A program made the position numbers and the translations under genes. Source: Marsupella aquatica (Eukaryota > Plantae > Marchantiophyta). Taken from it: a stretch of DNA of 64,000 bases. Within the stretch, counting starts at the first letter, position 1. Every line of letters begins with the position of its first letter. This document shows positions 1-45,808 of the stretch, piece after piece. The stretch is from assembly GCA_973895155.1 (NCBI GenBank), contig OZ316897.1:22171455-22235454 (forward strand), read 5' to 3'. The notes below the pieces were generated by a model. The model was not told the DNA's origin. It did no database searches and worked only from the letters and a program-made list of their open reading frames with translations.

Positions 1-5
1 GGACA

Positions 6-12333: not shown

Positions 12334-12339
12334 AATAAT

Positions 12340-20480: not shown

Positions 20481-23400
20481 GGGAGGAGACGTAGAAGAAG
20501 GTTACCCAAAGTTGGGATTGACCCCATACAAGTCAATTGGGTCACAGAGGATTTGGGTGCCCCAGAACTCACAATAGACATCAACGGATGTGCAATACGG
20601 TTTGTACCGATGGATGGTGGTTCGGGAATCAACATCATGACTGAGGAGACAACCAATCAATTGGGGTATACGGAGTTAGAGCCACCGGCACGTGCCATGA
20701 GGCTGGCTGATGGGGCACGGGTGGTGCCGCTGGGGTGTCTCACCAAGATTCCAACAATGATTGGGGGAAAATCTTTTCCCCTCAACTATTTGGTGATGCG
20801 ACCCGTTCGGCCGTACGGTTTTCCCATCTTAATTGGCAGGCCATGGTTGTATCTGGCCAAAGTGACGAGCGATTGGGGCAAACGGCAGTTTCGGTTTGGA
20901 ACCCCCACTATTATCATTCCCTGGTCAGCGGAGTCACCTCAAGGGGAGACTACCTCTATGGAAGAGCAATATGATTCAGAGGTCACCTCAGAGGAAGATG
21001 AGGATGAAGTATACATGGTGAAGCTGATTTCTCATCTAACGGAGGAAGATGTCTTTGGTCCACAAGCTGCTACCTTTGAGGAGGGAATTATGGAAGTACC
21101 ACTTGACCAGAGTTGTGTTGTGCAGAGGAAAACCAAGGAAGAGCCACCTACACCACCCCTGGCCCAGCTTATTGATACTCAAGAGCAGGAACAAACGGAG
21201 GAGGAGGGGCAGGAAGCTCAAGCCATTCTGTTTGACAATGAACGAAGGGAGGAGTGGCTGAATGACCTCTTAGATGAAGAATTTAGAGAGGAGCTACTGT
21301 CACATTACAAAGAATCTGACGTGGAAGAAATGATGGCCCATGTGGCAAAAGACCCACCCCCAACTCGGCCAGACCAGGAGGAGAGTGATGCACCTGTGTA
21401 TGGAGGGATGAGGCTTGCACGGCTGGAGGAGACCTTTGATGAGGAGACACGCAACAAGCTGGACGTGATCAGGCCGGAGCAATACACAAAGGTGGAGGTG
21501 GGTGAAGGCAAGACACTCAACATTGGCAGCAAGTTGGATGCTACGGAGCAACACACCATTCAGAATACCAAGACGTATTTGCGTGGAGCCACCAAGATTT
21601 GAAGGGAGTGCCACCTGAGTTTGGTGAGCATAGCATTGACTTGATGTCAGGAGCCCGGCCGGTGAGGCAACGCCAATACCGTCTCAATCCCAAGTACTCA
21701 CTCATGGTGAAGGAGGAGATTGACCGTTTGTTGGATGCAGGCTTCATTTATCCTGTCATGCACAGTGAGTGGGTATCACCCATCGTGATTGTGCCCAAGA
21801 AGAAAGGGGCAGACGGTAAGGTGAAGATACGGGTGTGCTAAGATTTCCGGAAGCTGAATGACGCCACCAAGAAGGATCACTATCCACTGCTGTTTACTGA
21901 CATTGTGTTAGATATGGTGGCCGGTTGGGAGATTTACAGCTTCCTAGATGGTTACTCTGGATACAATCAAATCTGGATACGGGAGGAGGATCAACTCAAG
22001 ACGGTTTTCACCACGGAGTGGGGGATTTTTGTATTCCGTAGAATGCCTTTTGGGTTGTGCAATGCCCCTGGCATGTTTCAACGACTCATGATGAATATAT
22101 TTCATGACTTTTTACGGAGGTTCTTGGAGATCTTTATTGATGACTTTGCTGTCTACGGCAAACAAATCAAGCACCCTAAACACTTACGGTTGACTTTTCA
22201 GCGGTGCCAGGAGACTTGCTTGAAGCTACATCTTGAAAAATGTTTTTTTGGAATTGAGGAGGGGACCCTATTGGGCCACAAGGTGTCGGCTCGTGGAATT
22301 GAAGTTGATCGTGAGAAGGTAGCCGTGTGGGTAGCAGTCTCGTTTCCCAAAAACGTGAAGGAAGTGAGAGGGTTCTTGGGGTGCGTTGGCTACTACCGCC
22401 GCTTCATCAAGGACTTTGCCAAGGTAGCCATGCCACTCACATCCATGTTGAAGAAGGGAAGTGAATTTGAACCTACTCCTTCCCGTCAAGCTGCTTTTGA
22501 TGAACTAAAGAAACGTTTGCTAGAGGCTCCCGTACTCATCACGCCTAATTGGAATAAGGAGTTTCACGTTTACGTAGACGTATCCGGGTTTTGCATCGGT
22601 GCCGTCTTGAGTCAGTTGGATGAGGATGGGAGGGATCATCCCATCTACTTTGCCAGTAGGCAGTTGGCCCCGGCAGAGAAGAACTACTCACCCACCGATA
22701 GGGAGGCTCTTGGTATCATTTACGCTTGTAAGAAGTATCGTCATTATTTGTTGGGTTACAAGGTTGTGTTCCACACGGATCACAACAGTTTGAAATACAT
22801 GGTTAACAAGCCAGATCTGTCTGGGAGAATTGCACGATGGGTCCTCTTATTACAGGAGTTCAACTATGAGGTGAGGGTGAGATCCGGGAAGAGTCACAGC
22901 AATGCTGACTTCTTCTCCCGTATTGAGGGACCATCTGACTCTCAAGAGATTGATGATCGTTTTCCCGATGAAGAAGTCTTCAAGGTGACTACAGAGGCCA
23001 CTACTTGGTATGGAGAAATTCTTGAATTTCTCCGTACGGCCAGGATTCCATTACGATTGGGTCCGGAACATGCAGCAGTGTTCTTACGTAAGACGGGGCC
23101 CTACTTGCTTGTGAAGGGAGTACTTCACAAATACGGCATGGATGGACGCCTTCGTTGTTGTTTGGAGGAGGCTGAGATACGTACAGTCATGGCGGCACTA
23201 CATGAGGAAGAAGCTGGTGGCCACTTTGCACGGGAAACCACCGCTAGGAAGATACTGGATGCGGGATATTGGTGGCCCACACTTTTCCGGGATGTGCACA
23301 GGTACATCCAGAGATGTGACCCCTGCCAACGCCAAGGCAGACCAGGGCCCTCCTCCCGGCACCCATTGGTGCCCATACTTCCCCTTGCACCATTCGAGAA

Positions 23401-24340
23401 ATGGGGGGTTGATTTCATTGGTCCCTTTACTCCCATTACACGGAGGGGGAGGAAGCGCTATATCATATTGGCCACGGACTATGCCACCAAGTGGGTGGAG
23501 GCCAGGGCAACAGCAAAGGATGATGCCAACACCACTGCACGGTTCTTGTACGAGCAGATTTTCACACGGTTTGGGCCACCCTTGGAGCTTGTGAGTGACA
23601 GGGGTACTCACTTTCTCAATCATACGATTGAGCGTTTGACGGAGAACTACTTGATCTCACATAGGAAAACCACTCCGTACCATCCACGAGCCAATGGGCT
23701 CACAGAGAGAGCAAATGGGATCATGGGCAAGATCCTTAATAAGACGGTATCAGCTCACAAGACAGATTGGGATTTGAAGTTGCTGGCTGCTACGTACGCC
23801 TACAACCTGGCTCACAAGACCACCACTGGCCACAGCCCCTACTTCCTTGTGTTTGGTCAACACTCTCTTGTGCCGGTGGAATTTGAGGTTCCCACCATTC
23901 GAATCTTAACACGAGAAAGGGAAGGGGAAGAAAGTAGTGTAGCTGCACGGATCCAACAGTTGGAGCAACTTACAGAGGTACGAGAGGAGGCTTTGACGAG
24001 CACGGAGCAACAGCAAGGCAAACAGAAGTTACACTACGATTCCCATCTCCGCCGTGTGTCCATTGAGGAGGGAGATTTGGTGCTCCTCTATGACAGTCGT
24101 TTCATGCATTTCCCGGGGAAGCTACATACACGTTGGATGGGGCCCTACATTGTCGATGCAGTCTACTCCAATGGGTCAGTTCAGCTCAAGACGCTGGAAG
24201 GGCAACTACTCAACACATGGATTAATCAAGAACGCCTGAAGAAGTACTACACGGAGGAGGAGTATGGTGCTCGCGGGGGCGCTTCGCAATTAAGAGAGGA
24301 GCTATGTGACGGGGTCCCCGTCTCGAAAGGTCATCATTAG
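20481..24340 (+). pseudogene. pol: pol of gypsy copy 2 (frameshifting deletion at ~21563, TAA at 21839)
   Basis: ORFs 20115-21602 (3' part), 21599-21841 and 21905-24340 are collinear with copy 1 Pol. Confidence 0.92.
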
Positions 24341-27018
24341 GAGTTATTGGCAAGATGCATGTAAATAAATAAGCCAATATACATAATAGTTTTTCAATTT
24401 TTTTTAATTTCTTAAAAGTTAATCATCCCGGTGTGTGTTCATGTTGCTCTGGAGGGCCGGAGCTATTTGAACCCGGGAGGAACTATTTTTTTAATTGACC
24501 TTTTGCTCTCTTGGGTCTTGTCGTTGTGGGAGAAGAAAATTAGGCATCTTAAGGGGATACCACTCATTAATATTTGGAGACCCCGGCAGTTTTTCTTGGC
24601 CCCGGTATAATATGGCAGAGGAGCCCACGAGCCGTGGGGCGCGAGACGGAGGGTCGCCCTGCGAGTAGGCGGAGCCCCGAAAGGGTCTTCCAGGGCGTAA
24701 GCGAGGGGCAGCCGGGAAGGAGGAGCCCACGAGCCATGGGGCGCGAGACGGAGGGTCGCCCCGCGAGTAGGCGGAGCCCCGAAAGGGTATTCCGGGGCGC
24801 AAGCGAGGGGCAGCCGGGAAGGAGGAGCCCGCGAGCCGTGGGGCGCGAGATGGAGGGTCACCCCGCGAGTAGGCGGAGCCCCGAAAGGGTCTTCCGGGGC
24901 GTAAGCGAGGGGCAGCCGGGGAGGAGGAGCCCGCGAGCCGTGGGGCGCGAGACGGAGGGTCGCCCCGCGAGTAGGCGGAGCCCCGAAAGGGTCTGCCGGG
25001 GCGTAAGTGAGGTGGCAGCCGCATGGAAGTTGACTATGGGTAACACGGGGAGGATTGGGAATTCCCTACCCTTTGTTTTTTTTCTTTGGTTTTTTTTTGT
25101 TTCTTTGCTTCCTTCTCCGCGCGTGCAACTCCTTTCTTGGCCGAAGCACTCTGCCCTCATTTCCGAAAGCAATTTCCCCAAAGTCGGAAGCTCTCTACCA
25201 GCTCTTACACTTATTTTCGAAGCTCTTTCTCATGGTCAATTGTTGGGGCTTGTGGGCATGATTCTTCCGGGCATTAGCGGCAGCAGCACGGAGTGGCTTC
25301 TGAGGGAATTGAGGGTAATTGATTGATCGGGATACGGGGGCCGTTTCGGGCCAGGGGATTGACATTGCTACGGGTGACGGGATTTGGTGATTGAGGATTT
25401 GATTTCTGGATGCATGGATGCTGGATCAACCGGAGTTTAGTGCGGCACGCGTTCGGAGATACAAGGCTGCTTACCGTGACTACATTGAGACATTGATTGC
25501 AAGAGCTTAGAGAAGAAGCTCAGGGAGGTACATAAATCGTTACGAGAAGCTCAGGTCAACACGGGGATCCCGGGGATGCCACCCCGATCTGTCACCCCTG
25601 GGACTCCCATGGCCACCGGGCAAGTTTTACCGTTGGAGTTGTGGTCCAGTGAAGAGGCGGCCTTATGGAAGGACACCATTGGTGACGGGTACATTAAGGC
25701 GTGGCAAGCCTTGGCCAATTTGAGGAAGCAGGGGAGCACTAGCACAAGGAGTACCCCGGTGAAGAAGAAGAGGAGTGAAGTGGCACTCACTCCAGTGGAG
25801 AGTGATGAGGAGGCCCACTCACGGGGCTCAAGCCAAGGCACCGTGAGTGAAGAGGAGGAGGATTAGAGTGGTCGTACGGACGTGGTTGTACGGCCCCTTG
25901 ACTTTTCAACTTTTTTGTGAGGGGTCACTCACGGGCTTGTTGGAAAGAGCTCGCGGAGCTGATTCCAACAAGAGGCGGCGCTCCTCAAACGGAGCCAGGA
26001 TGAGCAGGTTAGGGCCCGACGAAGTTGGGTTTATGGGATACTAAAACGGCCATAACTTGGTCCTCCGATGTCCGTTTCAAGAGCGGTTGAGTGATTCATG
26101 ATCAGGGGGAGCAAGGCTACCCAGGGGTGAGCTCAGAGGTGAAATCATAGTGACACCTAGTTTTGGCAATTGTGGGGTCCCTTGCATTTTCACGGTTCAC
26201 GGAGCGACGTTGGGGCGCCGTCGAAGGCACCGTCGGCCCCATTTTTAGTTTAGGGTTTTAGGAGCATGTGTGTGCCGCATGCTTTAGGATTAGGGATTCC
26301 TCATGGACGGTTTTAGCGGCGCCGCTAGGTAGCCGCCACCTTTGTGACCCCGTGAGGGGGCTTTGGTGTGTTTGTTTCTAGTATTTAGGGGGAGAGCCCC
26401 GGAGTAGTGAGGGGGGAACTCAGCGTAGTGCTTTGATGCTTTTGAGTAGCTTTTGTGAGTAGCGCACCGATTAGGTGAAGTTCAAGCCAGAGTAGTGAGG
26501 TGGAGAACGTAGCACTTGTCCTAGGGAGGCAGGAGTTGGGCAGACGGCAGGAGGCCGGATTGCCCTTGCATGTGTTACGGGAAACACCAAGAGATATGGA
26601 TTTGGCTTGAGGTTCCAATATTTTGTGTGTCACTTGTTGTTGCTTGTGTTGTTTGTTTTCCTCCCCTAGTGCATGTGGTCGGTTTCGTTATGGAAACATT
26701 TGCCCTTGTCACTAGTGTTCAAACCTTATTGTAAACGTTTGTATGCTTGCCCATGAGAGGGGGGTGGTGACAGCACTCACCCGATGGGCATGAGTTGTAG
26801 ATGGTAGGACCAGTCCCTTGGACTTGATCAAAAACGGAGAGACCAGTCGGTAGACTTGATCAAAAAGTACACTTCTGGGAGTGGAATCAAACATACTCAT
26901 CCTTAGGTATGAAAATCCTTCAAATAGCGTCCCTCCACGACCCCGTAATACGATACCAACGGTTTAAGCGAAGAAAAGTACGATTTGCACGTATTAATCG
27001 TTGGATAGGCAAGTGATA
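24305..27018 (+). repeat. 3' LTR of gypsy copy 2 (2714 bp) with an internally deleted LTR-ORF remnant (~25434-25866)
   Basis: Homologous to 38884-43223; MPPRSVTPGTPMATGQVLPLEL... is shared with the 617-aa ORF. Confidence 0.88.
24619..25010 (+). repeat. 102-bp GC-rich tandem repeat (~3.9 copies) in the LTR
   Basis: AGGAGCCC starts at 24619, 24721, 24823 and 24925. Confidence 0.92.
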
Positions 27019-28790: not shown

Positions 28791-29128
28791 GATGACAAAG
28801 TCTGAAAATTTGAATGCAAGGAGCAATAAATTTATCGCTCTGACAAACCCAAAAACCAAAAACCGGCATGCAAACATCGATACAATGAACTCAAAAAGTC
28901 CTCATTCACGTACAAGCATTAGGTCATTCCACGAGCGATACCAACTCCGATAAAATTATCGCAAACAAATATGAGCACGATATAAATTGACGGCCGAGAT
29001 TACATTATCGTACGTGTCAACATCTAAAAATGAGACCAACACCAATAAAATTATCGCAAAAGTGGTCCAAACAAAAAGTGAGCCTTCTTTAAATTGACAA
29101 CCGAGTGTACATGTGATAATGTGCCTAA

Positions 29129-29708
29129 TCAATCATCCCACCCAAGATCAAACCGCGCTACAGCAAAGCGAGAGATTAGCTTCTTGGGCCATTGGGGTAT
29201 ATGAGTGATCCTATGATCATAGGCCCATAGCCAATGAAAATCTGTGGCACCGGTCTCAGGATTAACTACAGCTACTGAATAGCCGCGTGACGGAACGTCA
29301 CAACAGGCATTTGTGCAACACTGACACATCTCACCATTGTCAAGGACATTTGTCCATAAACAAGATACATAAGTTAACCTAAATAACGGACAAAGAGGCC
29401 TAGGGGGGAGTTGATGAGTCCTATACGAATATAACTTCCCACCAGTGTCAATCAAAAACTCGGTAGCAAGAGGATTGTCCAGCTGGTCAATCACATCCTG
29501 AATCTCATCAAATGCTCTACGTCTGTTGTGGGCATAGAATTCTGGTTCATAGGCAGGATTGCCCTTCACAACATGACAGCAGTGCAGTATAAAATGTTTT
29601 ACTGCACCGGTTTTAAGAAAAAGCAGGATAATACTTCTAGAAAATGCAGCATATCTATCCCACCGGATATAAATTTCTCCCCCTACCTGGTCTACGTAGA
29701 AGTGATAT
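29129..29708 (-). pseudogene. Unknown gene of element Y, split by the solo LTR (5' part from 34323 to ~34360-34469)
   Basis: Frame stays open from the TSD to 29129 (YHFYVDQVGGEIYIRW...CQCCTNACC...); no recognised domain. Confidence 0.45.
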
Positions 29709-32700
29709 TGTGATGCCTAGCCAGGAATCATTCGGCCAGTTAAGTGGGTAAAGCAGGAATGCACCCTAGAAACACCTTAGTATAGGGACAAAACAAGGAA
29801 AATATAAACAATTAGGGGCGACTATGGAACCCAGGCCGAGGCCGGAGGTAAGGACGCTGGGGGTGAAAACTCGATTAGGGTTACGGCACGCTAAGCGTCG
29901 GCGGCTAGGAAGGATCAACGGGAGGAAGGACCGGAAGAGGAGAGGGGTAAGGAGCGCTTGCAGGAGATGGTGGCTCATTTGCGAGCATGAACTAGGCAGA
30001 CGACTACGGGAGGCCAACTACTGTCAGCTGCTTAGGCAAGCACTCGGGGAGAGAGTAGATACCGACGATCGACCTAAGGAGGGTATGAGCAACGTCAATC
30101 AAGCGGCACATTTCTGGGGATGCCTGTTCGAACGGGCAACTGAGTACATCAAGACTTACGAGGACAAAGAATCAGAAAGGGCAGCTCGAGAACGACAAGA
30201 GCTCGCTCGATTGTGGGAGCTGTAGAAGACGGCTTTCTTAGGAGGTGAACTCATCAAGGCCGAGTTCTTGTGGACTCCTACTTCCAATCAGCTCGACGAT
30301 CTTCTGTTTTGTGAAGACAGAATCATCGGCATTCGAGAGGCCATCAAGAACTGCAACGACATACACTGGGAATTGAAGGGTAGCACGGAAGGGTGGACCC
30401 AGGCAACGGTGCTAGGAGAAACCTCCACGGCAGCCGAGATGAAGAGGAAGGGAGCCGTCAACGATGAAGCCACCCCGGCAAAAAGAACGAGGTCGGCGGC
30501 ACCAAAGAAGCCAGCCGAGCAGCAGAGCAGGAGGCAGGGAGAAGCCGAAGAGGAGGAGGTTGATCCCATTAATGCCATTCCAACCATGGATGACACCTGG
30601 AAAGGCTGGGCGACAACCCTACCAGCGGAGGTGCAACTACATTTTGCACGGGAGGAGGATGCATGCTTTACGGCCATGCAGACCAAGAAGTACCAAGGCT
30701 TCATGGCCGGATCCGGCTTAGAGGCCTTTGTAAGATTACCATGGCTGAAGCCGGAGGTACCGGATTCAGACCTATTAGAATTCATGGGGTCATGGGAACC
30801 CGAGACCAATTGCACGAGGATATATGGGAAGGATTTCTATCTTACTCCCAAGGTGATTGCCGAAGTGTTTGGCTTGCCAATAGGCAATAAGACCAAAGTT
30901 GATACCAGGAAGACCTTGCCTGACAAGGAGTTCCGGTCGTTCCCCGGGCCATCAACAAAGAATGGCTTCTTCCGGAACACCTGCACCAACCCGCACATAG
31001 GAGAGATGATCGACTTCTTGCGGGTGACCATGCATTGTAACTTGCCGAGGGCAGAGATCGGCAAGGCACAGGTCTATCTGGCAGAGAGGCCAGACCCAAG
31101 CCGGGACTACAACGGGTACCTCCTCAACCAATTGAAGAAGATCTTAAAGGAGGAGCAGCAGGTAATCGGCATGGGGAGCGTGTCACGGCTTGGCTATCAC
31201 ATGCCGCTATTGTGCCGGTATGCCAGAGGTCAGACCTTTGCCCCAGTACTTCCCCTGCAGGTAAGGGTACCCGAGGAAGCTCCAGCACCGAGGCCGGTAG
31301 CAGAGAAGCCTCAACCACCTGTTAGCCCTACGATTGAGCAGGTGTTTAGGCCAAGGAAGGAAGACTTGCCAATGCAGCAACCAAGCATGCAGAATCTGCT
31401 GAAAATGCTGGAGAAGGAAAAGACGGCACCGGCACCGGCTTCGGCAGCAGCACCAATACAGGACACTGCCCCAGAGGTCAACCTAAGCAGAATCAGGCCA
31501 GAATCCAAGCCGGGTGTTCGAATGTACGTGGGAGTCTCAAGCTCTGAATCTGAGGCAGAATTGCCTGAAGCTCCTACCGGCGAAGAGGAGAGGGAGAAGC
31601 CGGAAGTCCAAGAGGTGGAGGAGGCAGTGGAGGACTGCAGCCATGATAACTCCGGCTATGGGTTGGACCATCACGTTCCAGGAGTAAGGACCTGTGGCCG
31701 GTTTATCCCCACACTTCCAAGGGTAGTTCGAGGGGACCCCAACCAGTAGAGTAGCCCCGAGTCTCCCCCACCAGATGTTGCTCCCCCGAGCTTTGACGGC
31801 ATAAAACAGACGGTGCAGGAATTTCAGGAGCAAATCAGGCAGGAAGAGGAGGTAGCCCTGGCTAGGGAAAAGGATTTTCCAGGAGGAGATTGGCCGGAGG
31901 ACATCAGGCGGCTAGCCAAAAAAGGAAGCAAACCTCTAGCCACGATTGAAGAGATCCACAAGACGGCTTGGGAGCAGAGGCCGCGATGGACGATGCCGAT
32001 CACTTCTACTTACTCCACCTACGCTAAGAATAGAGCCATGGAGTATGGTGAGATATTTGGGGAACTTGCGCTCGGCATCTTTGGGGAGGAGTTGGAGGTA
32101 GGACCCTTTTTCCATAGGGAGCAGTTGGAGAAGCACCAATTAGAAGAAGCGGTGGCTTTAGAGAGAAGCAAGAAGGACGAGGTCATCCGGCGGCTTAGGA
32201 GGATGGAAGCCAAGATTGAAGATCTAAGGGCGGCCAAGAAAGCCCAAGATGAACTGCGGATTAAGCGGCATGAGCTGAACATCATGCAGGGGCAGTTGGA
32301 CACAGCGCAGGCTGATAATCAGATTATCAAGGATAAACTGACTCAGACCCAGGGAGAATTGGCCGACGCAATCAAGGACAGGGAGAAATGGAAGAAGGAG
32401 CTGAGAAACGCAGAGGAGGCCCATATATCAGTCAACAACCGGGTCACGGCGGAGACTCAGAGAAGGGAGAGGGCGCTGAAGGGAGAGCTCGAGGTCATCC
32501 GCAGAGTCCTTGAGCAGAAGGAGGCCGAGTTAGGGAAATCCTATCAAGGGATTATTGCGCTACAGCAGGAGCTTGCGTCCCTGACGGCCAGCTTCAAGGC
32601 CGACCTGCGGGAGAAGGATGCCCAGCTCGACCAGACTTATGCCAAGATGAATAACATGGAGTCTGAGGTCGTAGCGGAGCTCGACAAGGAGCTAAGAGCA

Positions 32701-34322
32701 ACCCAGGAGGAGAGGGCTACCACCAAGAAGGAATTGGAGGAAGCCCACAGGGAATTGGAGGAAGCCAAAAACGAGTTGGAGGAGGCACGTAAGGACCTGC
32801 ATGAGACCCAGGAAGAGTTGGAGGAAATCACGAGGAAGATGGAGAACCTACAGCGGCGGGCCGACAACCAAACTGAGCGGCTGAAGAAACAAGCCGCAGT
32901 ATTTAAATGCTTAGCTGCATCAGGTCCATCTCCCGTTGGGGCAAACCAGTTACCAGGGGTGGTAATTGCCGAAGGACCAGCCGTGACACACGGCCCGGTG
33001 CCGGACATTGGCGGCAAAGGGAAGGAACCGGCTGTGGAGATAGTGAAGAAGAAGAAGCGGAAACCTTCGGGGCCCGGAGGTTATTCGACCCCTCAAGCCG
33101 TACTCAAACCGGCACCAACCTCCGGCATGAACACGGCAATAGATCCCGCTATCACCAAAGGTGGGGATGGCGCGGCCCAAGCCGAACTACTCAGTAATGA
33201 GGCCGGTATCCCAGATCCGCCTCTTGAGCAGGCCGGGGAGACCGTAGCCGAGAATGATTCCCGAGCCGATGCCGATGCCGATGGTGGACCCAGTCAGGCC
33301 GATGGAGAGTTGACTCAGTCACGGGTAGGTAATCTATCAGAGAACGAACCTACGGCAGTGGCTGAGGAGGAAGCGTTGGGGTCGTCCATTGAGGATCCAC
33401 CACCGGTGTCGTGACGGTGCAAGGGCGCCGTTCCTTTTAGGAAGGGCGGACGTGGAGGTAGGAGGCGTGAGTGGGCAGGGCGGGCGCTGATCTCCAAGTT
33501 TAGGATTAGGATCAGGACCAGGAGGCGGCCCTGACACTTAGCTTAGTGGAATTGCGGTTCCACTGGCAGGAGCAACACTTGTGCTCCTACCTTGTTGTAC
33601 ATAGGTAGATTCGGGCAGGTAGATTACTGTTAGGTAGATTAGGCTTACGCTGCAAAGAATTAGGCGGATCCACTACCAGGATAAGTACCTGGGCAGTGGG
33701 GAGCTCAGCGCCTCTTCTTTAGCAAGTTTTTAGTTTGCACCAGCCGGGCTGGGATCAAGTAGTAAGAGAAGCTCTCGGTTAGTCATACCGTGACCTTGTG
33801 TATATTCATGTTTCCTCATGCCTAAGAGCTGAATAGAGTTGGCCTCACGGCTTAGTTCGCAGAGCTTGTGTATGAGATGTACTGTTTGTATGGCAAGTGC
33901 ATGGTATGACTCAGTCAGAAGGAGTCATTTTGCTATTTGTGTGTCGCATTAACTTGTGTGAAGAGTGCCCACATCAACCAGAAGGGAGGAAAGTAAGCAA
34001 GGGAGTGAGAGTTGGATGTGTCGAGCTGAAAGAGGTCTTAGCGGCTTAACCAAGCCTATTGGGGATCATTCCGGCGGCGGAATCCAAACATACCTAACCA
34101 GAAGGAGAGGAAGACAAGGGAAGGCCTAGATTAGGCCGGCTACGTATCTCATGACCCGATGAAGGATCTGTCCAGTATATGTGTGTAAAAGGCTAATAGT
34201 AATAGTAGAAGGAGGTTAGCAACGTCCCATGCCGCTAAGCCGCGGAAATGGCCTCGCCAAGCCGCGGGAATCGGCTTGAGCTGGGGGTTTCTTGGGTTTA
34301 GGGAGCCATGGGACGCACCACA
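29709..34322 (+). mobile_element. Apparent solo LTR (4614 bp) of a long-LTR gypsy family, containing a ~1195-codon frame
   Basis: Ends TGTGATGC...GCACCACA (7/8 inverted repeat); 5-bp TSD GATAT at 29704-29708 and 34323-34327; no gag/pol. Confidence 0.82.
29824..33414 (+). pseudogene. LTR-encoded protein: PMD/Transposase_32-like segment + long coiled coil; one frame with two TAG stops (30223, 31747)
   Basis: ORFs 29824-30225, 30268-31749 and 31813-33414 share one frame and the gaps between them are open; LLEFMGSW...IYGKDFYLTPKVIAEVFGLP resembles plant gypsy accessory ORFs; ELEEA heptad repeats. Confidence 0.72.
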
Positions 34323-34799
34323 GATATGCGTTATTATAAAATGGTTTGCTACCAGCCTGCAAATCTTTAAAATTAGTGATTCATCCAGCTTCCTTAGCTG
34401 GTCCATCAGGGCACCATCCCCCCATTTCGGAGGATCCACAAAGGGTACAAAAATGCGTCGCTCGAGCATGACCTGATCAGCGAATAGAAATCAGGAATAC
34501 ATTTTGGAGAACATACTCATTACAATTCTACAAGTTTCATTCAACTTTATAGTACCTTGTATAACGGGCTGTGAAGCCAATGCACTTGTTAGCTAATTGT
34601 CTGTAGAAGCGCAAAAAACTACACTCTGGACCACACAACCCGAAGTCAGGCGAGGCAGGGTCATTTATATTCAAAGTGTTTTTTTACAAGCTCTTCTCGA
34701 GCAAACCTTAGATCACCCAAAACAATTGACTACTAAATTGACCAGAGGAATGAGGAGTGCGATAAATTTATCGAATGTTCGCAGCAATGCCTCATCCAC

Positions 34800-35348
34800 T
34801 CAGACTTGTCCATGCCATGCAAGAATTGTCCGCTTCCCGCTTTCTCCAAGATTCACCCAAACTCTAAGAAACGCATCTAATCGGTCATACGAGAAGCACC
34901 CAAGCATATCTATGGGAGGGAGGAAATGAGTTTCCTCTCGGAAGACCCTAGCAATATGTAGGTTTGAGAGAAGGTCGGCATTAGGAATGCTTGCGAGCAT
35001 TTGGTTTATGTCATTAATCTCACGGACTGCATATTTCAGTAAAGCCCAAAATCGTGTACCAACAACAAGATGGTTCCATTTCTTCGAGGTGGCTCCAAGA
35101 CAAATGATTGTTCTCATTTGAGCCAGTCGTTCTTCGGGTAAAAGTTTTAGGTCAAGGCCAAGGTGTTCATCTTGTGTGCAAGACAACGCCAAGAGAGGCC
35201 AAATGTGAGATTCAACGAGTTGATCAGGAAGTCCATTCAACAGACTTCCGCATTCCACACCAGGCACTTTTCCTTGAATATATTTCCTACGCTCGTGGGC
35301 TAATACGGATGCCATCTTAGCAACGATTAGGTTCTCCGACGCAGCCAT
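34800..35348 (-). CDS. F-box-like domain protein (cargo of element Y)
   Basis: LLNGLPDQLVESHIWPLL ... CLGATSKKWNHLV resembles a split F-box; ATG start; flanked by Y palindromes. Confidence 0.5.
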   Translation of the reverse strand: MAASENLIVAKMASVLAHERRKYIQGKVPGVECGSLLNGLPDQLVESHIWPLLALSCTQDEHLGLDLKLLPEERLAQMRTIICLGATSKKWNHLVVGTRFWALLKYAVREINDINQMLASIPNADLLSNLHIARVFREETHFLPPIDMLGCFSYDRLDAFLRVWVNLGESGKRTILAWHGQV

Positions 35349-35388
35349 GAAGCAGAGCTACCAAAACCACCAATAAAAGTACCTTCAA

Positions 35389-35872
35389 TCACCAGGTGTA
35401 ACCAAAGACATCCACAGTACCAACCCTGCACGACAATTTAAAGATTAGGACTCGGACCATATTGTATTCGGTGCACATGGGTAGGACTTGTTTACTTAAA
35501 TGTGTCCTTACAAAACACGCCTCAATGTGAAGGTCGCAACACTCATCGTGAAAGGTTGACCCAAGGGTCCTTGTTCCAAATCTGACAACATAAGTATGCC
35601 AATTTATGGTACTTGTTGTCAAGAGGACGACAACAATAGTTACAAGAAAACTCCAAAGAATGGAGACACGATGTTAACATCAACCTCGAACGGATTGGAA
35701 CTCCTGCACCATTCATTCCGTAGAACTCAATCCGGAGAGGATTCTGCCTATCTCCGGGATCAGTACCACCCATCCACAACGGTCCTACACCAATGGGGAG
35801 AACTTTACGTTGCACGAGTTTCTTGTACAACCGGCGTGCACGTTTGACACGATTTTGAATTAAGACAGCCAT
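35389..35872 (-). pseudogene. Unknown small gene (ORFs 35543-35872 and 35389-35622, possibly frameshifted)
   Basis: ATG-start ORF co-oriented with the other Y genes; no recognised domain. Confidence 0.3.
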
Positions 35873-36060
35873 TTGTCACTATACCTTTGATCCACCAAGT
35901 CCAATCGACCTTTCGTTGTGCCTCCTAAACCCTGCAGCACTGCGACATCATAGAGGAAGATGAGTCTCCAAACAAAACAGAGGAAGATGAGTCTCACAGG
36001 AGGGTGCGATAACTTTATCGCACCTCGCATTCATCTTGAAGACATGACTCCCTCACACAC

Positions 36061-36393
36061 TCAAGCAATCTTCAATCAATCACAGGAATGGAAACTCCGA
36101 TAAATTTATCGGAGTCTCAAGCAATCTTCAATCAATCACAGGAATGGAAACTCCAATAAATTTATCGGATTCTCAAGCAATCTTCAATCAATCACAAGAA
36201 TGGAAACTCCGATAAATTTATCGGATTCTCAAGCAATCTTCAATCAATCACAGGAATGGAAACTCTGATAAATTTATCGGAGTCTCAAGCAATCTTCAAT
36301 CAATCACAGGAATGGAAACTCCGATAAATTTATCAGAGTCTCAAGCAATCTTCAATCAATGACAGGAATGGATACTTCGATAAATTTATCGGA
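36061..36393. repeat. 56-bp tandem repeat x6, each with the palindrome CCGATAAATTTATCGG or a near variant
   Basis: Units start at 36061, 36117, 36173, 36229, 36285 and 36341. Confidence 0.95.
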
Positions 36394-37635
36394 CCTTGAA
36401 TATAATTTATGGAATGAATGCGCACTGGATCAAAGGAATGCAACAGAGGAATGTAGAATGCGATAAATTTATCGCAATCCTCTCGGATCAGGACATTGAC
36501 ACCAAATGACAAGTCAACCTTACATGGATGATACTCGACTAGAATGGTAGTTCCGATAAATTTATCAGGTTCTCTGGAGAAAGAGTCAAGTCTCTTGGGA
36601 GGAATGCAAGACTTGATAGGAGTTCAGTATTCACTCTGAGTGAGGTGTTGGTCGCTCCGGCGAAAATAAACTTTTTATGGGCAACCCGCTCCTCTTTATA
36701 TAGGGGATGCTCTAACCATGGTAACTTTCCCCCTTAACCATGGTTACTTTCCGCCTTAACCCGGGTTAGTGCGTGGTCGACCCTCGATTACGTGGTTTTG
36801 GACCAAGTTACTCATAGTTCGGACTTTTTCACAGAGCGAATGTAAAACTCAATGCACGTATCGCTCCCTGCATTCCCGCGGCGATGCAATGTAGGCAACT
36901 CATGTTTTTTTGATTTTTTGGCAGTTTTATCGGAGATTGCATTGCCTTAGAAAAAAAATGGAATTGGGCTAAACGAGAAGTGTGTCACACTTCTCGGTCA
37001 GTCCAAAATCGTGTTATTATCTTTCCTAGTAATTTGGTCTCTATCATTTTTACTAGGCTCATTTGACTTCTCTATAGACTGAAATCCAATGAGAACATTG
37101 GCATTTTTCTCTCCTTCAGGTACCTCGCAAATAGATGCATCACTCTCTGTTGAGCTACCATCCTCCATAGATCTCCTCGACGCATTTAGAGGGGCACTAA
37201 AAACGTGACTAAAACTATTCCCTTCTACAGCTCCTTCTAAACATTCAGACACAACTTGTGCTATGATATCGGATTCTCTATCTCCTTCCTGATCTTCGTC
37301 CTCTGATCCACTCGACTCATCTGAAAACACAATTGGACTCCGTGGCTCTCTATACATAACCTGAATGCCACTAAGACCTCTCCTCGACACTTGGAGCCTG
37401 GAACCAATCACAGTCCGCCCTGGAGAACTTGGAGAATCTAGAACTCTCAACGGTGAACTATTCACACGTGCAATCCCAACGACTCCGCAAGCTGCAGGAA
37501 AATTGAGCACTTGTTGACCACGATTCCCACGGACCATTCGGGAAAGGGCCGAGTCTGGACTTTGTAATCCGATTCTGTGACGGGGTCCCTCCACGGTAAG
37601 TCACCATTAGTGTCACGGCGAGAGTTCCCTCACGT

Positions 37636-38907
37636 TTGGGCCCGGAGAGAGCAGCAGTGTTTTTATGTAAGACAGGTCCCTACTTGCTTGTGAAGGGAGT
37701 ACTTCACAAGTACGGCATGGATGGCCGTCTTCGTCGTTGTTTGGAGGAAGCTGAGATACGTATAGTCATGGCAGCATTACATGAGGAAGAAGTTGGTGGC
37801 CACTTTGCACGGGAGACCACCGCAAGGAAAATACTAGATGCTGGATATTGGTGGCCAACTCTCTTTTGAGATGTACACCGGTACATCCAGCGATGTGATC
37901 CGTGCCAGCGTCAAGGCAAACCAGGGCCCTCCTCACGCCACCCATTGGTGCCCATACTTCCTCTTGCACCCTTTGAGAAGTGGGGGGTTGATTTCATTGG
38001 CCCCTTCGCTCCCATCACTAGAAGAGGGGGGAAGCGCTACATCATTCTTGCAACGGACTATGCCACAAAGTGGGTGGAGGCCCGAGCCACTGCCAAGGAT
38101 GATGCCAACACCACGGCACGTTTTTTGTACGAGCAGATTTTTACACGATTTGGTCCCCCATTGGAGCTGGTGAGTGACAGGGGTACTCACTTTCTCAATC
38201 ATACGATTGAACGTCTGACGGAGAACTACCTGATCTCACATAGGAAGACCACTCCGTACCATCCTCGAGCCAATGGGCTCACTGAGAGAGCAAACGGGAT
38301 CATGGGCAAGATTCTTAACAAGACGGTATCAGCTCACAAGACAGATTGGGATTTGAAGTTGTTGGCTGCTACTTACGCCTACAACCTGGCTCACAAGACT
38401 ACCACGGGCCACAGCCCCTATTTCCTTGTGTTTGGACAACACTCTCTTGTGCCGGTGGAATTTGAAGTGCCCACCATTTGGATCCTAACACGGGAAAGGG
38501 AAGGGGAAGAAAGAAGTATAGCTGCACGGATCCAACAGTTGGAGCAACTCACTGAGACACGAGAAGAGGCTTTGACCCGTACAAAGCAGGAGCAAAGCAA
38601 ACGGAAGTCACATTACGATTCCCGTCTCCGTCGTGTGTCCATTGAGGAGGGAGATTTGGTACTCCTCTACGACAGTCGTTTCATGCATTTCCCCGGGAAG
38701 TTGCATACACGTTGGATGGGGCCCTACATAGTAGACGCCGTCTACTCCAACGGCTCAGTTCAACTCAAGACGTTGGAGGGGCAACTACTCAACACATGGA
38801 TCAATCAAGAACGCCTAAAGAAATACTACATGGAGGAAGAGTATGGTGCTCGCGGGGGCGCTTCGCAATTAAGAGAGGAGCTATGTGACGGGGTCCCGCC
38901 ACGGTAA
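37636..38907 (+). pseudogene. pol: Integrase region of pol, copy 3 (TGA at 37867)
   Basis: Nearly identical in protein sequence to copy 2 integrase; zinc finger, DDE and GPY motifs. Confidence 0.93.
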
Positions 38908-41900
38908 GTCACCATTAGTGTCACCAGCAAGACACCTGTAAATGAATAAGCCCATAGACGCGAGTTTTTTTTAATGTTCTTTAAGTTTGTAAAGTTTTTT
39001 AAAGCATCTCGGGATAGTCGGAGACCCCAACAGTTTTGTCTAGACCCGGGTTAATTATGGGGCAAAACCTGGGGGGTATAAAATCGTGACTTTTCGGGAA
39101 GGTAAGGAAGTCCGGGAAATAAGCATTTTTAATTTTTTTGGTAACACCCCTTCTAAAGCAACACTCAGGCAGAGCTGGGGGAGTATGGGGGGTTTAATTA
39201 AACCCCCATTAAATCCTTCCGCGAGTGGGCAGCGAGAGAGCCGGGCCTTAAAGAGTATGAGGGGATCCATAAGGGGCAGCCCTGGAGCTGCCACATGGAA
39301 TCCCCATAAGGGGCACGAAGCCAGCCAAGGCGAAGAAAAAAAAGAACTCCGTGGGGGGAAGCTGCCGCAAGTTAGGGGGGTTTTTTTTAAATCCCTCCCA
39401 AGGAGGGCAGCCGGGCCGTGGCAGAGCCGCGAGTGACCGGGAAGGAGGGCCGCGAGCTCCGCGAGGGCGGGAGCTGCTGCGAGCTGCTGCGAGTAAGGAG
39501 TAGGGGGGTTTTAAAATAAATCCCTCCTAAGGAGGTCCGTGAGCTGCCAAGAGGGCAAGGGCTGCCAGGAGCGCGAGCCCGCACGGATGTGAGCTGCCGC
39601 GCAAGCGGGGGTGTCCACGAGTGAGCCAGGGGGCAAGGAGCCAGCCGGCAGCAGGATTGGGGGATATTAGGGCAGCCGCGTGGCAGGGGGCGAGCGAGCC
39701 CTGCATAGGTCCGTGAGCCACCAGGGAGCTACTAGGTGCGAGGTGCGAGGACGCGAGCTGCGGGAGGAAGAAATTAAAACCCCCTTAAGGGGCTCCGCGA
39801 GTGACTGGGCAGGGGGGCCGCAAGCCCTACATAGGGCCGCGAGCCCGCACGGACGCGAGCTGCGAGGAAGGGGGACTCCCGCGAGTCGGGACAAAGGAGG
39901 GCCCGGGGCGCAAGGCGAAAAGCTGCTCCCAGGAAGGGTTTCGTTGTTTTTTTTTCTCTCCCCTCTTTTCTCCTTTTCACACGACCCTTCTCTTGCCGAA
40001 AGCAAACTCGAGTTTCTCTCTCTTATTGCCGAAAGCTTCCTCCTTATGTTACAATTATTTGAGCTCTCTCTCTAATTCTTCTCAAGGCTCACTCAAGGGG
40101 GATTGCGGGGACTATTCGGGCATTAACGACAGCAACATGGAGTGACGACGGAGGGGATTGAGAGAAATAAATTAATCTGGCTACGGGGGCTGTTTCGGGC
40201 CAGGGAATTGACATTGCTACGGGTGACGGGATTTGGTGGTTGAGGATTTGATTTCGGGATGCATGAATGCTAGATCAACCGGAGTTTAGTGTGGCACGCA
40301 TTCGGAGATACAAGGCTGCTTACCGTGACTACGTGGAGACTTTGATTGCAAGGGAGAGAGAAGAGAGAGAAGCTACGATGAGCACGGGATTGGCAGCAAG
40401 TTCCACACCGGTGGGTAGGAGGATTTTTTGTCGAATTTATCCCAAGACCTCCGCCAAGGTGATGGAGGATTGTCGAAATATTTTCCAAGCCACCGGGGTT
40501 ACAGAATTCATGAAGGTAGAGATTACCATCCCTCCGGGGAAGAGCTGGGACATTGAGGCTGGGATGAAGTTACGAACGGAGGGAATCTACTTTGAATGTC
40601 TCAAACGTGTAGTGCCCCATGTGGAGTTGGCTAGGCTGCTATTTTTGGAGAATCAGAAATTCTCATTCACACCTTGGCACATTAGGGGAGAACTCACGTT
40701 GAAGATGGTGGCCACTTGGGTGATTAATCCCACCTCCACCACTGCCATCCCTCTTTCCGCTGTCAAGGATGTTGAGTATAAGGGATTCCTGGCCAAGGTT
40801 CATCAACGGGTCCTTGGCAACGTGCAATCCGGGGTGGTGAATGAAGAGCATTTTGTGGTAGCTATGGACATCAAGAACCACCCAGCCCATGTGTACGGAT
40901 GGTGGTACTACGGGTTGAAGAAGCTGTTGGCCGCTGATCCCGGGAGTGTGAAACCAGGTGGGGCTGTACATTTGATGGGGTCATTTGTATTGGCTAGGGC
41001 AGAAGGGTTGATTGGTTCCCCGGGACAGGAAGACACAGGATCATCTCTCACCACGGAGATCCGGAGTATTGCCACTACCATTTTAGGGAAGCTCACGGAG
41101 GAATCATCGTCGGCTGGTGGGGATGACGATAGAGGAGAAGAAAACCAGGATGAGGACTACACGTTGGAGTGGCTTGAATCACTCGTGGGAGATCCAAAAA
41201 AGCCCCTGGTCTACAACATTCCGGATGTTTACCTGGTAGAGCTACAGGATTTCAGAGAGGGAGTCCAAGAGGGACTCAAGCTAGTCCACGCATTGAGAGA
41301 TTCTCTCAAGCACGCCACAGCCAGAGTAGAGACGTTAGAGCAGAGTACCCTGTCTCTGAAGGAGGTGATCAAGGCCAAGGAGGGGACCATTCATGAGAAG
41401 GTTAAGCTTCTCCAAGCAGCTCACGTAGAGATCTCCAACTTAAAGGGAGCCTTGTCCACCAAGGCCAAGGAAGCAGAAGAGGTGGGAGCGTTGAGACAAG
41501 CATTGGCCAAAGAGAAGCAGAATTCTGGAGAAGTGGTGGAGTGGAGAAACCAGGTGGGAGCACTACGGAGTCAGGTGGCCGCCTTTGAGACACGAGCAAA
41601 GAGGAGTGAGGCCTTGAGTCTGGGGAAACGGAAGAGCCCCGGCACACCTAGCTCCACACTTTCCCCGGATTTGATCTCCCAGGCTATTGAGATGGTGGTG
41701 AAGGAGGTTAGTGGGAAGTATGGACCCTTGTTGGATGGAGCCAAGAAGAGTCAGGAGAAGAGCAAGGGCTTGGAGAAGAAGCTCCGAGAGGTACGGAAAT
41801 CGTTACGGGAGGCTCAGGTCAGTACGGGGATGCCACCCAGGTCTGTCACCCCCGGGACTCCCATGGCCACAGGGCAAGTTCTACCGTTGGAGTTGCGGTC

Positions 41901-43223
41901 CGGAGAAGAGGCTACCCTATGGAAGGACACCATTGGTGAGGGGTACATCAAGGCGTGGCAAGCCTTGGCCACTTTGAGGAAGCAAGGGAGCGGCAGCACG
42001 GAGAGTACCCCGGTAAAGAAGAAGAAAAGTGAGGTGGCACTCACTCCCGTGAGTGATGAAGAGGAGGCCCACTCACGGGGCACAAGCCAGGGCACCGAGA
42101 GTGAAGAAGAGGAGGAGTAGATAGTCGTACGGATGTGGTTGTACGGCCTCTGGATTTCCAAATTTTTTGGATGGGGTCACTCACGGGCTTGTTGGAAAGA
42201 GCTCGCGGAGCTGATTCCAACAAGAGGCGGCGCTCCTCAAACGGAGCCAGGATGAGCAAGTTATGGCCCGACGAAATTGTGTTTTCGCGATACGGAAACG
42301 ACCATAACTCAGGCGTCCGATGTCCGTTGCGAGTGCGGCTAAGTGATTCGGGATCAGGAGGAGAAGGGATATCCAAGGGTGAGCTCAAAAGTACAATTGA
42401 TAGGGCACCTAGTTTCGGCCATTGTGGGGTGCCTTGCACTTTCAGGGTTCACGGAGTACAGTTGGGGCACCGTCAAAGGCACCGTCGGCCCCTTGTTTAG
42501 GGTTTAGGGTTTTAGCAGCATGTGTGTGCCGCATGCCTTTTTAGTTTAGGGATTTCTTAGTGCAGGGTTTTAGCGGCGCCGCTAGGGTAGCCCCCATCGT
42601 TGTAACCCCATGAGGGGTGCTTTGGTGTGGTTTTTTGGTATTTAGGGGGAGAGCCCCGGAGTAGTGAGGGGGGGAACTCAGTCTAGTGTTTGTTTGAGGG
42701 AAGTTGTCTAGCAGCCCGAAGAGGGAATCCAGCCAGAGTAGTGAGGTGACAGCATAGTATTGTCCTAGGGAGGCAGGAGTTGGGCAGATGGCAGGAGGCC
42801 GGGTGGTCCTTGCAATGTATACGATTGTTCACCAAAAGATATCGATTTGGTTGGATTCCTGAATTTTGGGTGTGGTGTTCTCTCTCTTGTTGCACGGTTG
42901 TGTTCTTCCCCTAGCATGAATGTTTAGAGAAACTCGTATGGTTTGGTCGACCCTGTGAGTGGGAGAGTGGTGACAACACTTTGCCAAAGACTAGGAGGAG
43001 TAGGAATAGGACAGTCCACGGGACTTGATCAAAAGCGGAGTGCATGTATAGTCGATAGACTTGATCAAAAAATACATTTCCGGGAGCGAAAACGAATCTA
43101 CTCATCCTTAGTGAGAAGTTACTCTGTATAGCGTCCCTCCACGTCCCCGTCATACGATACAAACGATTATTAGTAGAAACTCAACGGTATTTGATGTGTT
43201 AATCGTTTGATAAGCAAGTAACA
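38884..43223 (+). repeat. 3' LTR of copy 3 (4340 bp)
   Basis: PPT AAGAGAGGAG at 38871-38880; start matches the 5' LTR stub; CA end followed by the TSD. Confidence 0.93.
40267..42120 (+). CDS. LTR-encoded 617-aa protein (globular N-half, acidic linker, coiled coil, basic NLS-like and acidic tail), function unknown
   Basis: Uninterrupted ATG-TAG ORF entirely within the LTR; both ends conserved in copy 2. Confidence 0.8.
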   Translation: MLDQPEFSVARIRRYKAAYRDYVETLIAREREEREATMSTGLAASSTPVGRRIFCRIYPKTSAKVMEDCRNIFQATGVTEFMKVEITIPPGKSWDIEAGMKLRTEGIYFECLKRVVPHVELARLLFLENQKFSFTPWHIRGELTLKMVATWVINPTSTTAIPLSAVKDVEYKGFLAKVHQRVLGNVQSGVVNEEHFVVAMDIKNHPAHVYGWWYYGLKKLLAADPGSVKPGGAVHLMGSFVLARAEGLIGSPGQEDTGSSLTTEIRSIATTILGKLTEESSSAGGDDDRGEENQDEDYTLEWLESLVGDPKKPLVYNIPDVYLVELQDFREGVQEGLKLVHALRDSLKHATARVETLEQSTLSLKEVIKAKEGTIHEKVKLLQAAHVEISNLKGALSTKAKEAEEVGALRQALAKEKQNSGEVVEWRNQVGALRSQVAAFETRAKRSEALSLGKRKSPGTPSSTLSPDLISQAIEMVVKEVSGKYGPLLDGAKKSQEKSKGLEKKLREVRKSLREAQVSTGMPPRSVTPGTPMATGQVLPLELRSGEEATLWKDTIGEGYIKAWQALATLRKQGSGSTESTPVKKKKSEVALTPVSDEEEAHSRGTSQGTESEEEEE

Positions 43224-44284
43224 GATTCCCTCGCTTGCTTGCACATCCAGTCTAGGCAATGCAAAGACCAATCGCCGTATCGGTCTTTGTATTTCTACCT
43301 CCTGGTCCTCACCTAGAGACTAAAAGATCCGTTGTTGAACGTGTGTTGAATGTGGCGACTTGAATGCTGAGTGCGATACGCGTATCGGTCGCCGGATACC
43401 CTCTCCATAACCCAGGATGGATGGCCTGAAGCGACGTCTTGGACCTAAACTTGGAATTGTAATTTTCTCACTTCTTGGTGATGGAACGCTCAAGAGACGA
43501 CGCTTCTCAGGTTTACTAGACGCCTGACTAGACGACACATAGTAAGAACTGGGCTCAGGACCAGAACTTGCATCAGAATCCGAATCAACGTCAAATTTTT
43601 TTGGCACTATCTGCTGTGAGAGAGGTAGAGCTTTAAGTATGCAACTTGGCAAGCAACGAGCGACAACATTAGGAGAGGATTCAACTGAACTTGAAGGTGA
43701 ATCTGTGTCTGATTGAGACATGGCTATCTGAGACACTATGGGGCTTTGCATTCCTCCCTCAATCAGGGAAAACGAATGGCTCAACGGACAAAATGTTGCT
43801 CCAAGAACACAACTCCCAAAACTCTACTCTGGATAATGACGCCAAAAACTTATCGGCGGTGGCCCTTTTATAGTGTCTGTTGAGGGGTTGGCCCACATGG
43901 CCACTTTTGATTGGCCGTCTCGCTAAACGACAAAATAGCAGAGAAGGGTATATTCACTAGTACATATTTAGCTGATTTCCAATGCTCAATTTTTGCAAAC
44001 AATCGGCGTCCGATTCTTTTAGAATCGGAAATTCCCATTATCACAAAATGGCAATATGCCATACTCTCGGCTTCGGATATCTTCATTTCTGATGTAATTA
44101 ACAACGGAACCTTTCCGATGCGGTAAAAACGGATCATATCCGTTACAAACTACATCGGATCCCCTAACAAAAAATTTGATTGATATGTCCGATGTTTTTT
44201 GAACCGCAAATGATGTGCGTTTCAATATTGATCGGAAAAGTTCCGTAGTTGATAAGAACGGATATTATATTCGATTGTGGTAAA

Positions 44285-44415
44285 ATGGCAAAGTCCGATG
44301 TTGAGAGAATGGGAAAGTCCGATGCTAAGAGAATGGGAAAGTCCGATGCTGGGAGAATGGGAAAGTCCGATGCTAGTAGAATGGGAAAGTCCGATGCTGG
44401 GAGAATGGGAAATTT
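44285..44415 (+). repeat. 24-bp tandem repeat (~5 copies) GGGAAAGTCCGATGCTGGGAGAAT
   Basis: Visible periodicity; translates as a KSDAGRMG repeat. Confidence 0.9.
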
Positions 44416-45679: not shown

Positions 45680-45808
45680 ACTTTCCCATTCTCCCAACAT
45701 CGGACTTTTCCATTCTCCCAACATCGGACTTTCCCATTCTCCCAACATCGGACTTTCCCATTCTCTTAGCATTGGACTTTCCCATTCTTTCAGCATCGGA
45801 CTTTTCGA
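45680..45808 (-). repeat. Inverted copy of the same 24-bp tandem array (~5 copies)
   Basis: CTTTCCCATTCTCCCAACATCGGA units are the reverse complement of the 44285-44415 units. Confidence 0.9.

Follow-up and report, generated by a model that had tools for sequence, protein, structure and literature searches.

A probable solo long terminal repeat of a liverwort that holds a broken accessory gene with a VANC21-like predicted fold

Can the long terminal repeat (LTR) of a plant retrotransposon hold a protein gene? The question is raised by a unit of 4614 bp on the plus strand of a 64,000-nucleotide stretch of the liverwort Marsupella aquatica (contig OZ316897.1, forward-strand positions 22,171,455 to 22,235,454; this whole stretch is the window, and its numbering is used below). 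The unit spans 29709-34322, has TG..CA termini by inspection of the sequence and consists largely of one long reading frame. A sequence-only reading had taken it for a solo LTR in which recombination left a complete accessory gene behind. Our analysis supports a modified version: the unit is likely a solo LTR of a non-chromovirus Ty3/gypsy element from an Athila/Tat-related liverwort clade, with an accessory, probably regulatory, gene inside the LTR that is broken in the window copy and whose product has a VANC21-like predicted fold. Taken alone, the part of this statement that concerns an LTR with a gene inside it is very probable.

Extra open reading frames (ORFs) of plant elements are placed in the internal region (PMC7264820), and the available text of PMC6317226, PMC11963269, PMC3485330 and PMC11728184 gives the same placement. 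LTRs of up to ∼ 5 kb are known, and the available portions of these five papers do not describe them as coding. The accessible parts of two liverwort papers (PMC13468544, PMC12885004) mention no LTR-borne ORF, and a literature search, with thin coverage of subscription journals, found no LTR-internal ORF in plant or bryophyte elements.

The TG..CA ends and the GATAT target-site duplication (TSD) of the sequence-only reading are borne out by the inverted termini, by GATAT on both sides (Table 1) and by contigs that span an empty site. Nine sequencing runs have words in common with the unit, and the contigs of four were compared in detail. Contig depth jumps sharply at both edges of the unit in all four runs. 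Contigs from runs X2 and X3 join 29703 to 34323, skipping 4619 bases, with five letters that fit either side; the flank is itself repetitive, so this empty site may derive from paralogues of the flank. Loose ends at the 5' edge begin at 29707-29709 and agree with one another at just 0.44-0.51 where several contigs were pooled, and they therefore represent many different insertion sites. The unit did insert here, with a TSD of 5 bp, and is present in high copy number. Contigs also connect an end of the unit to the interior points 30686, 31733 and 33481, which suggests that the family has inserted into copies of itself. No direct repeat was found inside the unit and no similar DNA elsewhere in the window. 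The absence of gag and pol was likewise confirmed, with no Pfam match to reverse transcriptase, RNase H, integrase or gag families in the three ORF pieces of the unit; the adjacent pol ORFs match strongly.

The single frame interrupted by two TAG codons that had been read from the sequence was recovered exactly. Stops in this plus-strand frame occur only at 29767, 30223, 31747 and 33412, leaving it open over 29770-33414 apart from the TAGs at 30223 and 31747; the part from the first ATG to the stop codon at 33412-33414 makes up 77.8% of the unit. The longest stretch with two stops or fewer has 1214 codons; in 300 base shuffles no such stretch exceeds 535. Because the first 87 codons have an atypical make-up by codon position (G 0.41 at position 2 versus 0.15-0.22 further downstream), translation may in fact begin at 30085, the second in-frame ATG, which gives 1110 codons with the stop, or 72% of the unit. 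The letter at 30223 differs from the window copy in 97-100% of contig depth in all four runs. Since this first stop precedes the conserved domain described below, the window copy, as its frame is read, cannot make the domain from either ATG, and the claim that a complete gene was left behind fails for this copy. Among the 12 indels listed, of 23 relative to the contigs, nine fall within the unit, all of them in its non-coding 3' part and none in the ORF. Even with all 11 unlisted indels placed inside the ORF, indel avoidance of the ORF would have P = 0.02.

Relatives of the ORF reveal where such a gene sits in an element. A homolog search of 1.84 billion representatives returned 21 matches, and four of the ten homolog clusters looked up are Calypogeia proteins. 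Word-indexed homolog searches gave nothing with the ORF (lengths 657-2093) or with alignment A1 (lengths 1303-3720, an ill-chosen range), and locus searches found none with the ORF in viral contigs or metagenomes, nor with pol in viral contigs. A pol-based metagenome scan yielded 47 loci. In 16 of these, pol is followed directly by a conserved tract that ends in a G-rich polypurine tract (PPT) and then, mostly, by TGT, as in three neighbours of the unit in the window. Where an LTR begins at its 5' end depends on the PPT from which the plus strand is primed (available text of PMC7197481). The hidden Markov model (HMM) of the query family matches ORFs downstream of pol in seven loci (E < 0.02 among 282 frames), and its profile aligns with that of the LTR ORFs of the loci (97.7%, E 1.5e-12, 169 columns). 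A profile built from eight locus ORFs finds the ORF domain behind the PPT, on the pol strand, in 12 of the 16 PPT loci (the eight profile members and four others) and in 0 of the 31 other loci; three of the four PPT loci without a domain match have fewer than 350 bases left after the PPT. Searched against 91 translated pieces (90 from the window and one Transposase_32 domain), the LTR-ORF profile matches the unit's ORF only (E 2.3e-4).

Two loci, L001 and L038, have the order PPT, ORF, primer-binding site (PBS) and imply LTRs of 3.8-4.5 kb (Table 1). In L003 and L006, the sequence that precedes the PBS recurs as its inverted complement behind the PPT. The PBS motif, 18 nt long, starting with TGG and identical in four loci, may pair with tRNA-Asp, as in Athila-type elements. 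It lies 4-6 nt after the CA in three loci, a spacing as in PMC1142308. Among named proteins, those closest to the neighbouring pol in the window come from Calypogeia fissa (70% over part) and Riccia sorocarpa (57%). In a quick tree of 39 rows, made up without three near-duplicate loci, all short loci and labelled reference elements, a clade of 19 rows (SH-aLRT 100) unites the five LTR-ORF loci long enough to be labelled with the window pols and with proteins of Calypogeia and of Riccia, the latter three in number; the Malus and Rosa rows lie outside it. The ratio of non-synonymous to synonymous change (dN/dS), a check proposed with the sequence-only reading, was calculated for the relatives. 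It was 0.12-0.32 in three of five domain pairs and saturated in two; the pol control (343 codons) had 82 synonymous versus 15 non-synonymous codon differences. Judged from these ratios and from the absence of listed indels in the ORF of the unit's own family, the LTR-borne ORF appears to be under purifying selection.

A genomic counterpart lies in the same window. The first ∼ 40 nt of the gypsy element at 37576-43223 recur at 38884, directly behind the purine tract at the end of pol, and on this basis its 3' LTR is placed at 38884-43223. This element has the same layout, an ORF inside the LTR, together with a genomic TSD. No homology of its 617-codon ORF to that of the unit was demonstrated, the scores being within the shuffle range. 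A second, partly deleted copy of this family (24305-27018) has the same start, ORF and end, and dN/dS between the ORF at 40267-42120 and the copy at 25501-25866 is 0.23 over 118 codons.

The encoded protein has, in order, an N-terminal region, a globular domain, an acidic proline-rich linker, the coiled coil noted in the sequence-only reading, a KKKKRK stretch and a low-complexity tail. The coiled coil is predicted, and its Pfam matches (Table 1) stay below the cut-off. Neither the protein (maximum Kyte-Doolittle 19-mer 0.93) nor any of five relatives tested (maximum 0.73-1.3) has a transmembrane segment. Of the 22 aligned rows of the domain, 20 are net basic and two are neutral, and three columns are rich in K/R. 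Its model rose from pLDDT 66 to 86 once the LTR ORFs of the relatives joined the alignment. Fold searches of viral and PDB libraries with the earlier weak model (pLDDT 66) had given no match at E ≤ 0.001, and PDB sequence searches gave 0 matches. With VIA-align, VANC21 came top among 48,161 chains (Z 8.2, 210 residues, rmsd 4.2; next row 2.4) and was the only match among 44 chains (Z 8.1, 211 residues, rmsd 4.3). A Z of 8 is the tool's stated background level, but the alignment spans the domain and no other chain comes close. The matched part of VANC21 comes from a DNA-bound structure (PDB 9lnj/9lnk). Foldseek ranked VANC21 second at an E of only 1.2 (TM 0.43 versus ≤ 0.19 for the other rows). 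Language-model features (Atlas) gave DUF1985 (0.89) and PMD (0.87) as leads for the query, and Transposase_32 (0.92, 24 of 30 matches) and ATHILA (0.92) for the relative L002. The PMD domain resembles that of VANC, according to the available text of bioRxiv 2024.04.02.587720 and 2024.09.27.615353. The domain is thus predicted to share the PMD/DUF1985/VANC fold group, with a Z near background. A PMD/Transposase_32-like region, as first proposed, finds support in the features and the fold and none in Pfam, and its best structural match is VANC21.

Several results weigh against the interpretation developed here. For the fold, these are the background-level Z and the Foldseek E value, together with an identity to VANC21 of 7% and the fact that a shared fold shows no function. 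The query, 21 homologs, 13 locus ORFs and 22 alignment rows have no match at the curated cut-off to PMD (PF10536), Transposase_32 (PF20167), ATHILA (PF03078) or DUF1985 (PF09331) in Pfam, and the profile has no significant match to one Transposase_32 member. Among the contig rows listed, no PBS is visible at the 3' edge of the unit, and the single loose-end row listed there (X5, four contigs, agreement 0.58; 1846 rows lie outside the listing) is not PBS-like. The non-coding part at 33415-34322 contains no clear repeated target motif; five word lengths were tried, and the best result, at one of them, is a 9-mer present three times, reached in 2% of shuffles. At the DNA level the unit resembles none of the 47 loci and none of the LTRs of its neighbours, and the direct identity of its ORF to those of the relatives is just 13-17%. 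The query-family HMM misses L038, to which the link runs via other ORFs (single-sequence match 55%, E 1.2e-4). The contigs from metagenomes have the look of repeats collapsed in assembly, not of genomic copies with TSDs, and several loci are close kin (L005/L026; L003/L006/L008). The gene is also dispensable in some families, since a third gypsy neighbour of the same clade (window 1-6849, intact pol at 3-3620, same pre-PPT motif) has an LTR of ∼ 3.2 kb (3661-6849, its 3' end being tentative) that contains GCT-rich repeats and lacks a long ORF. Finally, the contigs and loci compared include no full-length element of the unit's own family that has the unit on either side. The solo-LTR assignment made from the sequence thus stands on the insertion with its 5-bp TSD and on homologous ORFs between PPT and PBS, which are provided by relatives and not by its own family.

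The reading that had been named as one that would overturn a solo LTR is that the unit arose by internal deletion or recombination from an Athila-like element whose LTRs are short. The ORF would then be an ordinary extra ORF between pol and the 3' LTR, and the tract after pol only a central PPT. That layout is the known one; in the supplement of PMC6317226, as far as it was available, ATHILA ORF-1 is in sense orientation and 3' of pol in 166 of the 168 matches listed. Purine-rich tracts at about 33976-34010 and 34096-34125 inside the unit and somewhat deeper 3' bins in X3 (depth is not a copy number) would also suit it. However, the 5' end of the unit is not repeated inside the unit, and many copies with differing flanks start at 29709, which a one-off deletion would not give. 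In the 37576-43223 neighbour the TSD-bounded 5' end is the very sequence that follows the post-pol PPT, the sequences after the PPT and before the PBS in L003 and L006 are inverted termini, and L038 contains no second copy of the LTR start. The homologous ORFs of the relatives lie between PPT and PBS; short LTRs with an internal deletion are therefore the weaker reading, and we consider it very unlikely. We see an even slimmer chance that the unit is mobile by itself: a transposon, non-autonomous or of DNA type, that has TG..CA as short inverted ends, makes a 5-bp TSD and was amplified without an internal region. Its very high copy number and uniform edges, the lack of a visible PBS among the 3'-edge rows and the presence of VANC/PMD-type domains on DNA transposons as well (available text of bioRxiv 2024.04.02.587720 and 2024.09.27.615353) fit such a transposon. 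Against this, there is no transposase domain, the inverted ends measure just 8 bp, the relatives of the protein are located in gypsy LTRs, and one X6 contig has the purine run AAGGGGG, which resembles the PPT of the clade, two bases 5' of the unit's TG (a hint only, from a single contig).

Acceptance of a solo LTR with a gene inside leaves the job of the protein to be weighed. From fold and architecture we lean towards a DNA-binding regulator; an anti-silencing role in particular is a tentative proposal and less probable than not. A different task is improbable in our view, be it import of the integration complex into the nucleus or its targeting, RNA export or an env-like function, although a Z of 8 at 7% identity indicates a fold and not a function, ORFs of the Transposase_32/ATHILA type have been called env-like, and the non-coding part has no clear target-motif array. 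Against such tasks stand the missing transmembrane segments in query and relatives, the basic domain with its K/R-rich columns and the DNA-bound origin of the matched VANC21 part.

We suggest the following mechanism for the solo LTR with its accessory gene. Plus-strand synthesis would start at the PPT directly behind pol, so that everything downstream of it, accessory gene included, would become U3 and be copied to both ends in each round. Recombination between the LTRs would then delete gag-pol and keep one copy of the gene. Expression of the gene could rely on the genomic RNA, through its 3' part, or on a promoter at the LTR tip, for which the TATAAA at 29803 is a candidate. Its product would be a nuclear DNA-binding regulator that dimerises through the coiled coil, and from fold and architecture it may recognise the LTR of its own family and counter host silencing. 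Angiosperm Athila elements have two PPTs, one after pol and one before the LTR, that flank the env-like ORF. If this holds, it suggests that the choice of PPT explains whether the gene is internal or LTR-borne.

The Athila ORF2/env-like proteins (PF03078, PF20167), the PMD ORF of Ogre and TRP28 of Retand are the closest parallels. They share with the present case a non-chromovirus gypsy background and a sense ORF 3' of pol, the pol of the window neighbours lacking aRH, an Athila-type PBS a few bases after the LTR (in the relatives) and Atlas features that point to Transposase_32, ATHILA, PMD and DUF1985. They differ in that their ORFs are internal, whereas here the ORF lies between PPT and PBS and is part of the LTR, and the present protein, in contrast to those families, has no Pfam match and no transmembrane helix. 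VANC21 of VANDAL21 from Arabidopsis is alike in predicted fold over 210 residues, in being encoded by a transposon and in combining a domain with a coiled coil, through which it is predicted to dimerise (PMC5735166, bioRxiv 2024.04.02.587720 and 2024.09.27.615353, available parts). According to the accessible portion of PMC5735166, VANC contains DUF1985, binds to short motifs and demethylates the family to which it belongs. Unlike the unit, VANC21 is carried by a Mutator-like DNA transposon, and its motif arrays, DNA binding and demethylation have no counterpart demonstrated for the unit.

The position of the gene is paralleled by sag, an ORF that mouse mammary tumour virus (MMTV) has in its 3' LTR. 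Both the sag ORF and the MMTV LTR are much shorter than those of the unit. As in the unit, a whole protein gene lies in the LTR and is hence present twice per element and in solo LTRs (PMC2191060 and PMC2118998, available text). MMTV is a retrovirus, and sag encodes a superantigen that acts on host T cells; the likeness is one of layout, and no homology is claimed. The liverwort 'Tat Z2' and basal 'Tat Z1' clusters (available text of PMC13468544) and Phygy and Selgy (available text of PMC6317226) are likewise non-chromovirus elements of non-seed plants without aRH. These sources, in the portions available, mention no LTR-borne ORF for Tat Z1/Z2 and describe Phygy and Selgy as short. What is new is that an accessory ORF, a position like that of sag and a predicted VANC-like fold come together.

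LTRs of plants are regarded as non-coding, and the formation of solo LTRs as the means by which genomes disarm retrotransposons; a clade with LTRs of 3.8-4.6 kb that are 43-78% coding would break both assumptions. LTR-borne genes may also be annotated as host genes, and Calypogeia proteins are among the homologs found. The link to the VANC21 fold turns the role of Athila/Ogre-type extra ORFs into a testable question, DNA binding and anti-silencing versus envelope, and the choice of PPT may decide whether an accessory gene is internal or LTR-borne. Our boldest proposal, which as a whole we regard as rather unlikely, is that the liverwort clade keeps a VANC-like anti-silencing gene in the LTR. 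An intact solo LTR would then carry promoter, gene and target site together as one self-contained cassette, deletion of the element would leave a source of anti-silencing, and the 'env-like' ORF of Athila would be the same regulator, put outside the LTR by a shifted priming tract.

Table 1. Positions of the features of the unit, its neighbours and two related loci (window numbering, except for the loci)
Feature	Position	Strand	Basis or remark
Inferred solo LTR, 4614 bp	29709-34322	+	TG..CA, TSD, no internal repeat, contig depth edges
Left TSD, GATAT	29704-29708		sequence and empty-site contigs
Right TSD, GATAT	34323-34327		sequence
5' terminus	29709-29716	+	TGTGATGC, inverted repeat of 3' end at 7/8 bases
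3' terminus	ends 34322	+	GCACCACA
TATA-like TATAAA, candidate promoter	29803-29808	+	consensus motif scan only; 21 nt 5' of ATG 29824, 282 nt 5' of ATG 30085
Long frame, 1196 codons and stop from first ATG	29824-33414	+	alternative start 30085
First premature TAG	30223-30225	+	private to window copy; upstream of conserved domain
N-terminal conserved region	30226-30565	+	common to two database proteins: P0126 E 2e-9, P0142 E 5.5e-4
Globular domain, predicted VANC21/DUF1985/PMD-like fold	30571-31248	+	model pLDDT 86, pTM 0.84; profile match to LTR ORFs of relatives
Second premature TAG	31747-31749	+	not among the 40 differences listed (534 more exist)
Long predicted coiled coil	32224-32877	+	Pfam ATG16 E 4.9e-5, Filament E 0.002, both below cut-off
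Basic KKKKRK stretch, candidate nuclear localisation signal	33046-33063	+	pattern only
Non-coding 3' part, 908 bp, inferred end of U3, R and U5	33415-34322	+	stops in every frame
Gypsy element of another family	37576-43223	+	TSD GATTC; most of 5' LTR and gag-pol deleted
3' LTR of that element, 4340 bp	38884-43223	+	starts right behind purine tract 38871-38880
Intact 617-codon ORF inside the 4340-bp LTR	40267-42120	+	coiled coil, no Pfam match
Pre-PPT motif, ∼ 35 nt	∼ 3625-3660, 24270-24304, 38850-38883; loci L002-L009, L026, L038, L039		
Locus L038	PPT 584-593, TGT 597, ORF 671-3916, CA 5140, PBS 5145		4544-bp LTR, 72% coding
Locus L001, terminally redundant contig	PPT 3757, ORF 4213-6447 (745 codons), PBS 7576		pol before PPT; gag with Ty3_capsid after PBS

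The termini of the related elements show some variation. In L001 (3757-3790), L024 (854-880) and L020 (3106-3130) the bases after the PPT start with TA and not TG, a non-canonical LTR end, and the pre-PBS end of L001 is unclear. Distant elements share, with strong conservation, a motif of ∼ 35 nt directly before the LTR; it reads TTCGCGGGGAC...CACA, is followed by the PPT and is possibly a packaging or integration signal. In the family with the 617-codon ORF, pol runs through the PPT and stops within the LTR. The 37576-43223 copy of this family jumps from about base 40 of the LTR into integrase, and the copy at ∼ 20500-27018 has lost ∼ 1.4 kb inside the ORF.

The unit itself sits in another repeat (∼ 28800-29708 and 34323-36570), with palindromic subterminal motifs (CGATAAATTTATCG) on both sides and a 56-bp tandem array at 36004-36449. 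Because open frames on the minus strand run up to the insertion on either side, the unit probably interrupted the coding region of a DNA transposon. Elsewhere in the window, the minus strand of 7317-16321 contains weak matches to N6/N4 DNA methylases (7317-7967, E 3.5e-5; 13065-14504, E 1.6e-4) and, at 11074-12141, an NIF phosphatase (E 1.7e-17) amid CTCGAG-rich repeats; this cluster looks like a large DNA element that carries a methylase. An intron-less short-chain dehydrogenase ORF on the minus strand at 54678-55925 (adh_short, E 1.6e-21) gives a fungal-looking impression; the sequence collection searched has no exact copy of it. At 44272-45809, two inverted arrays of a 24-bp unit, separated by ∼ 1.25 kb, resemble subterminal repeats as non-autonomous DNA transposons have them.

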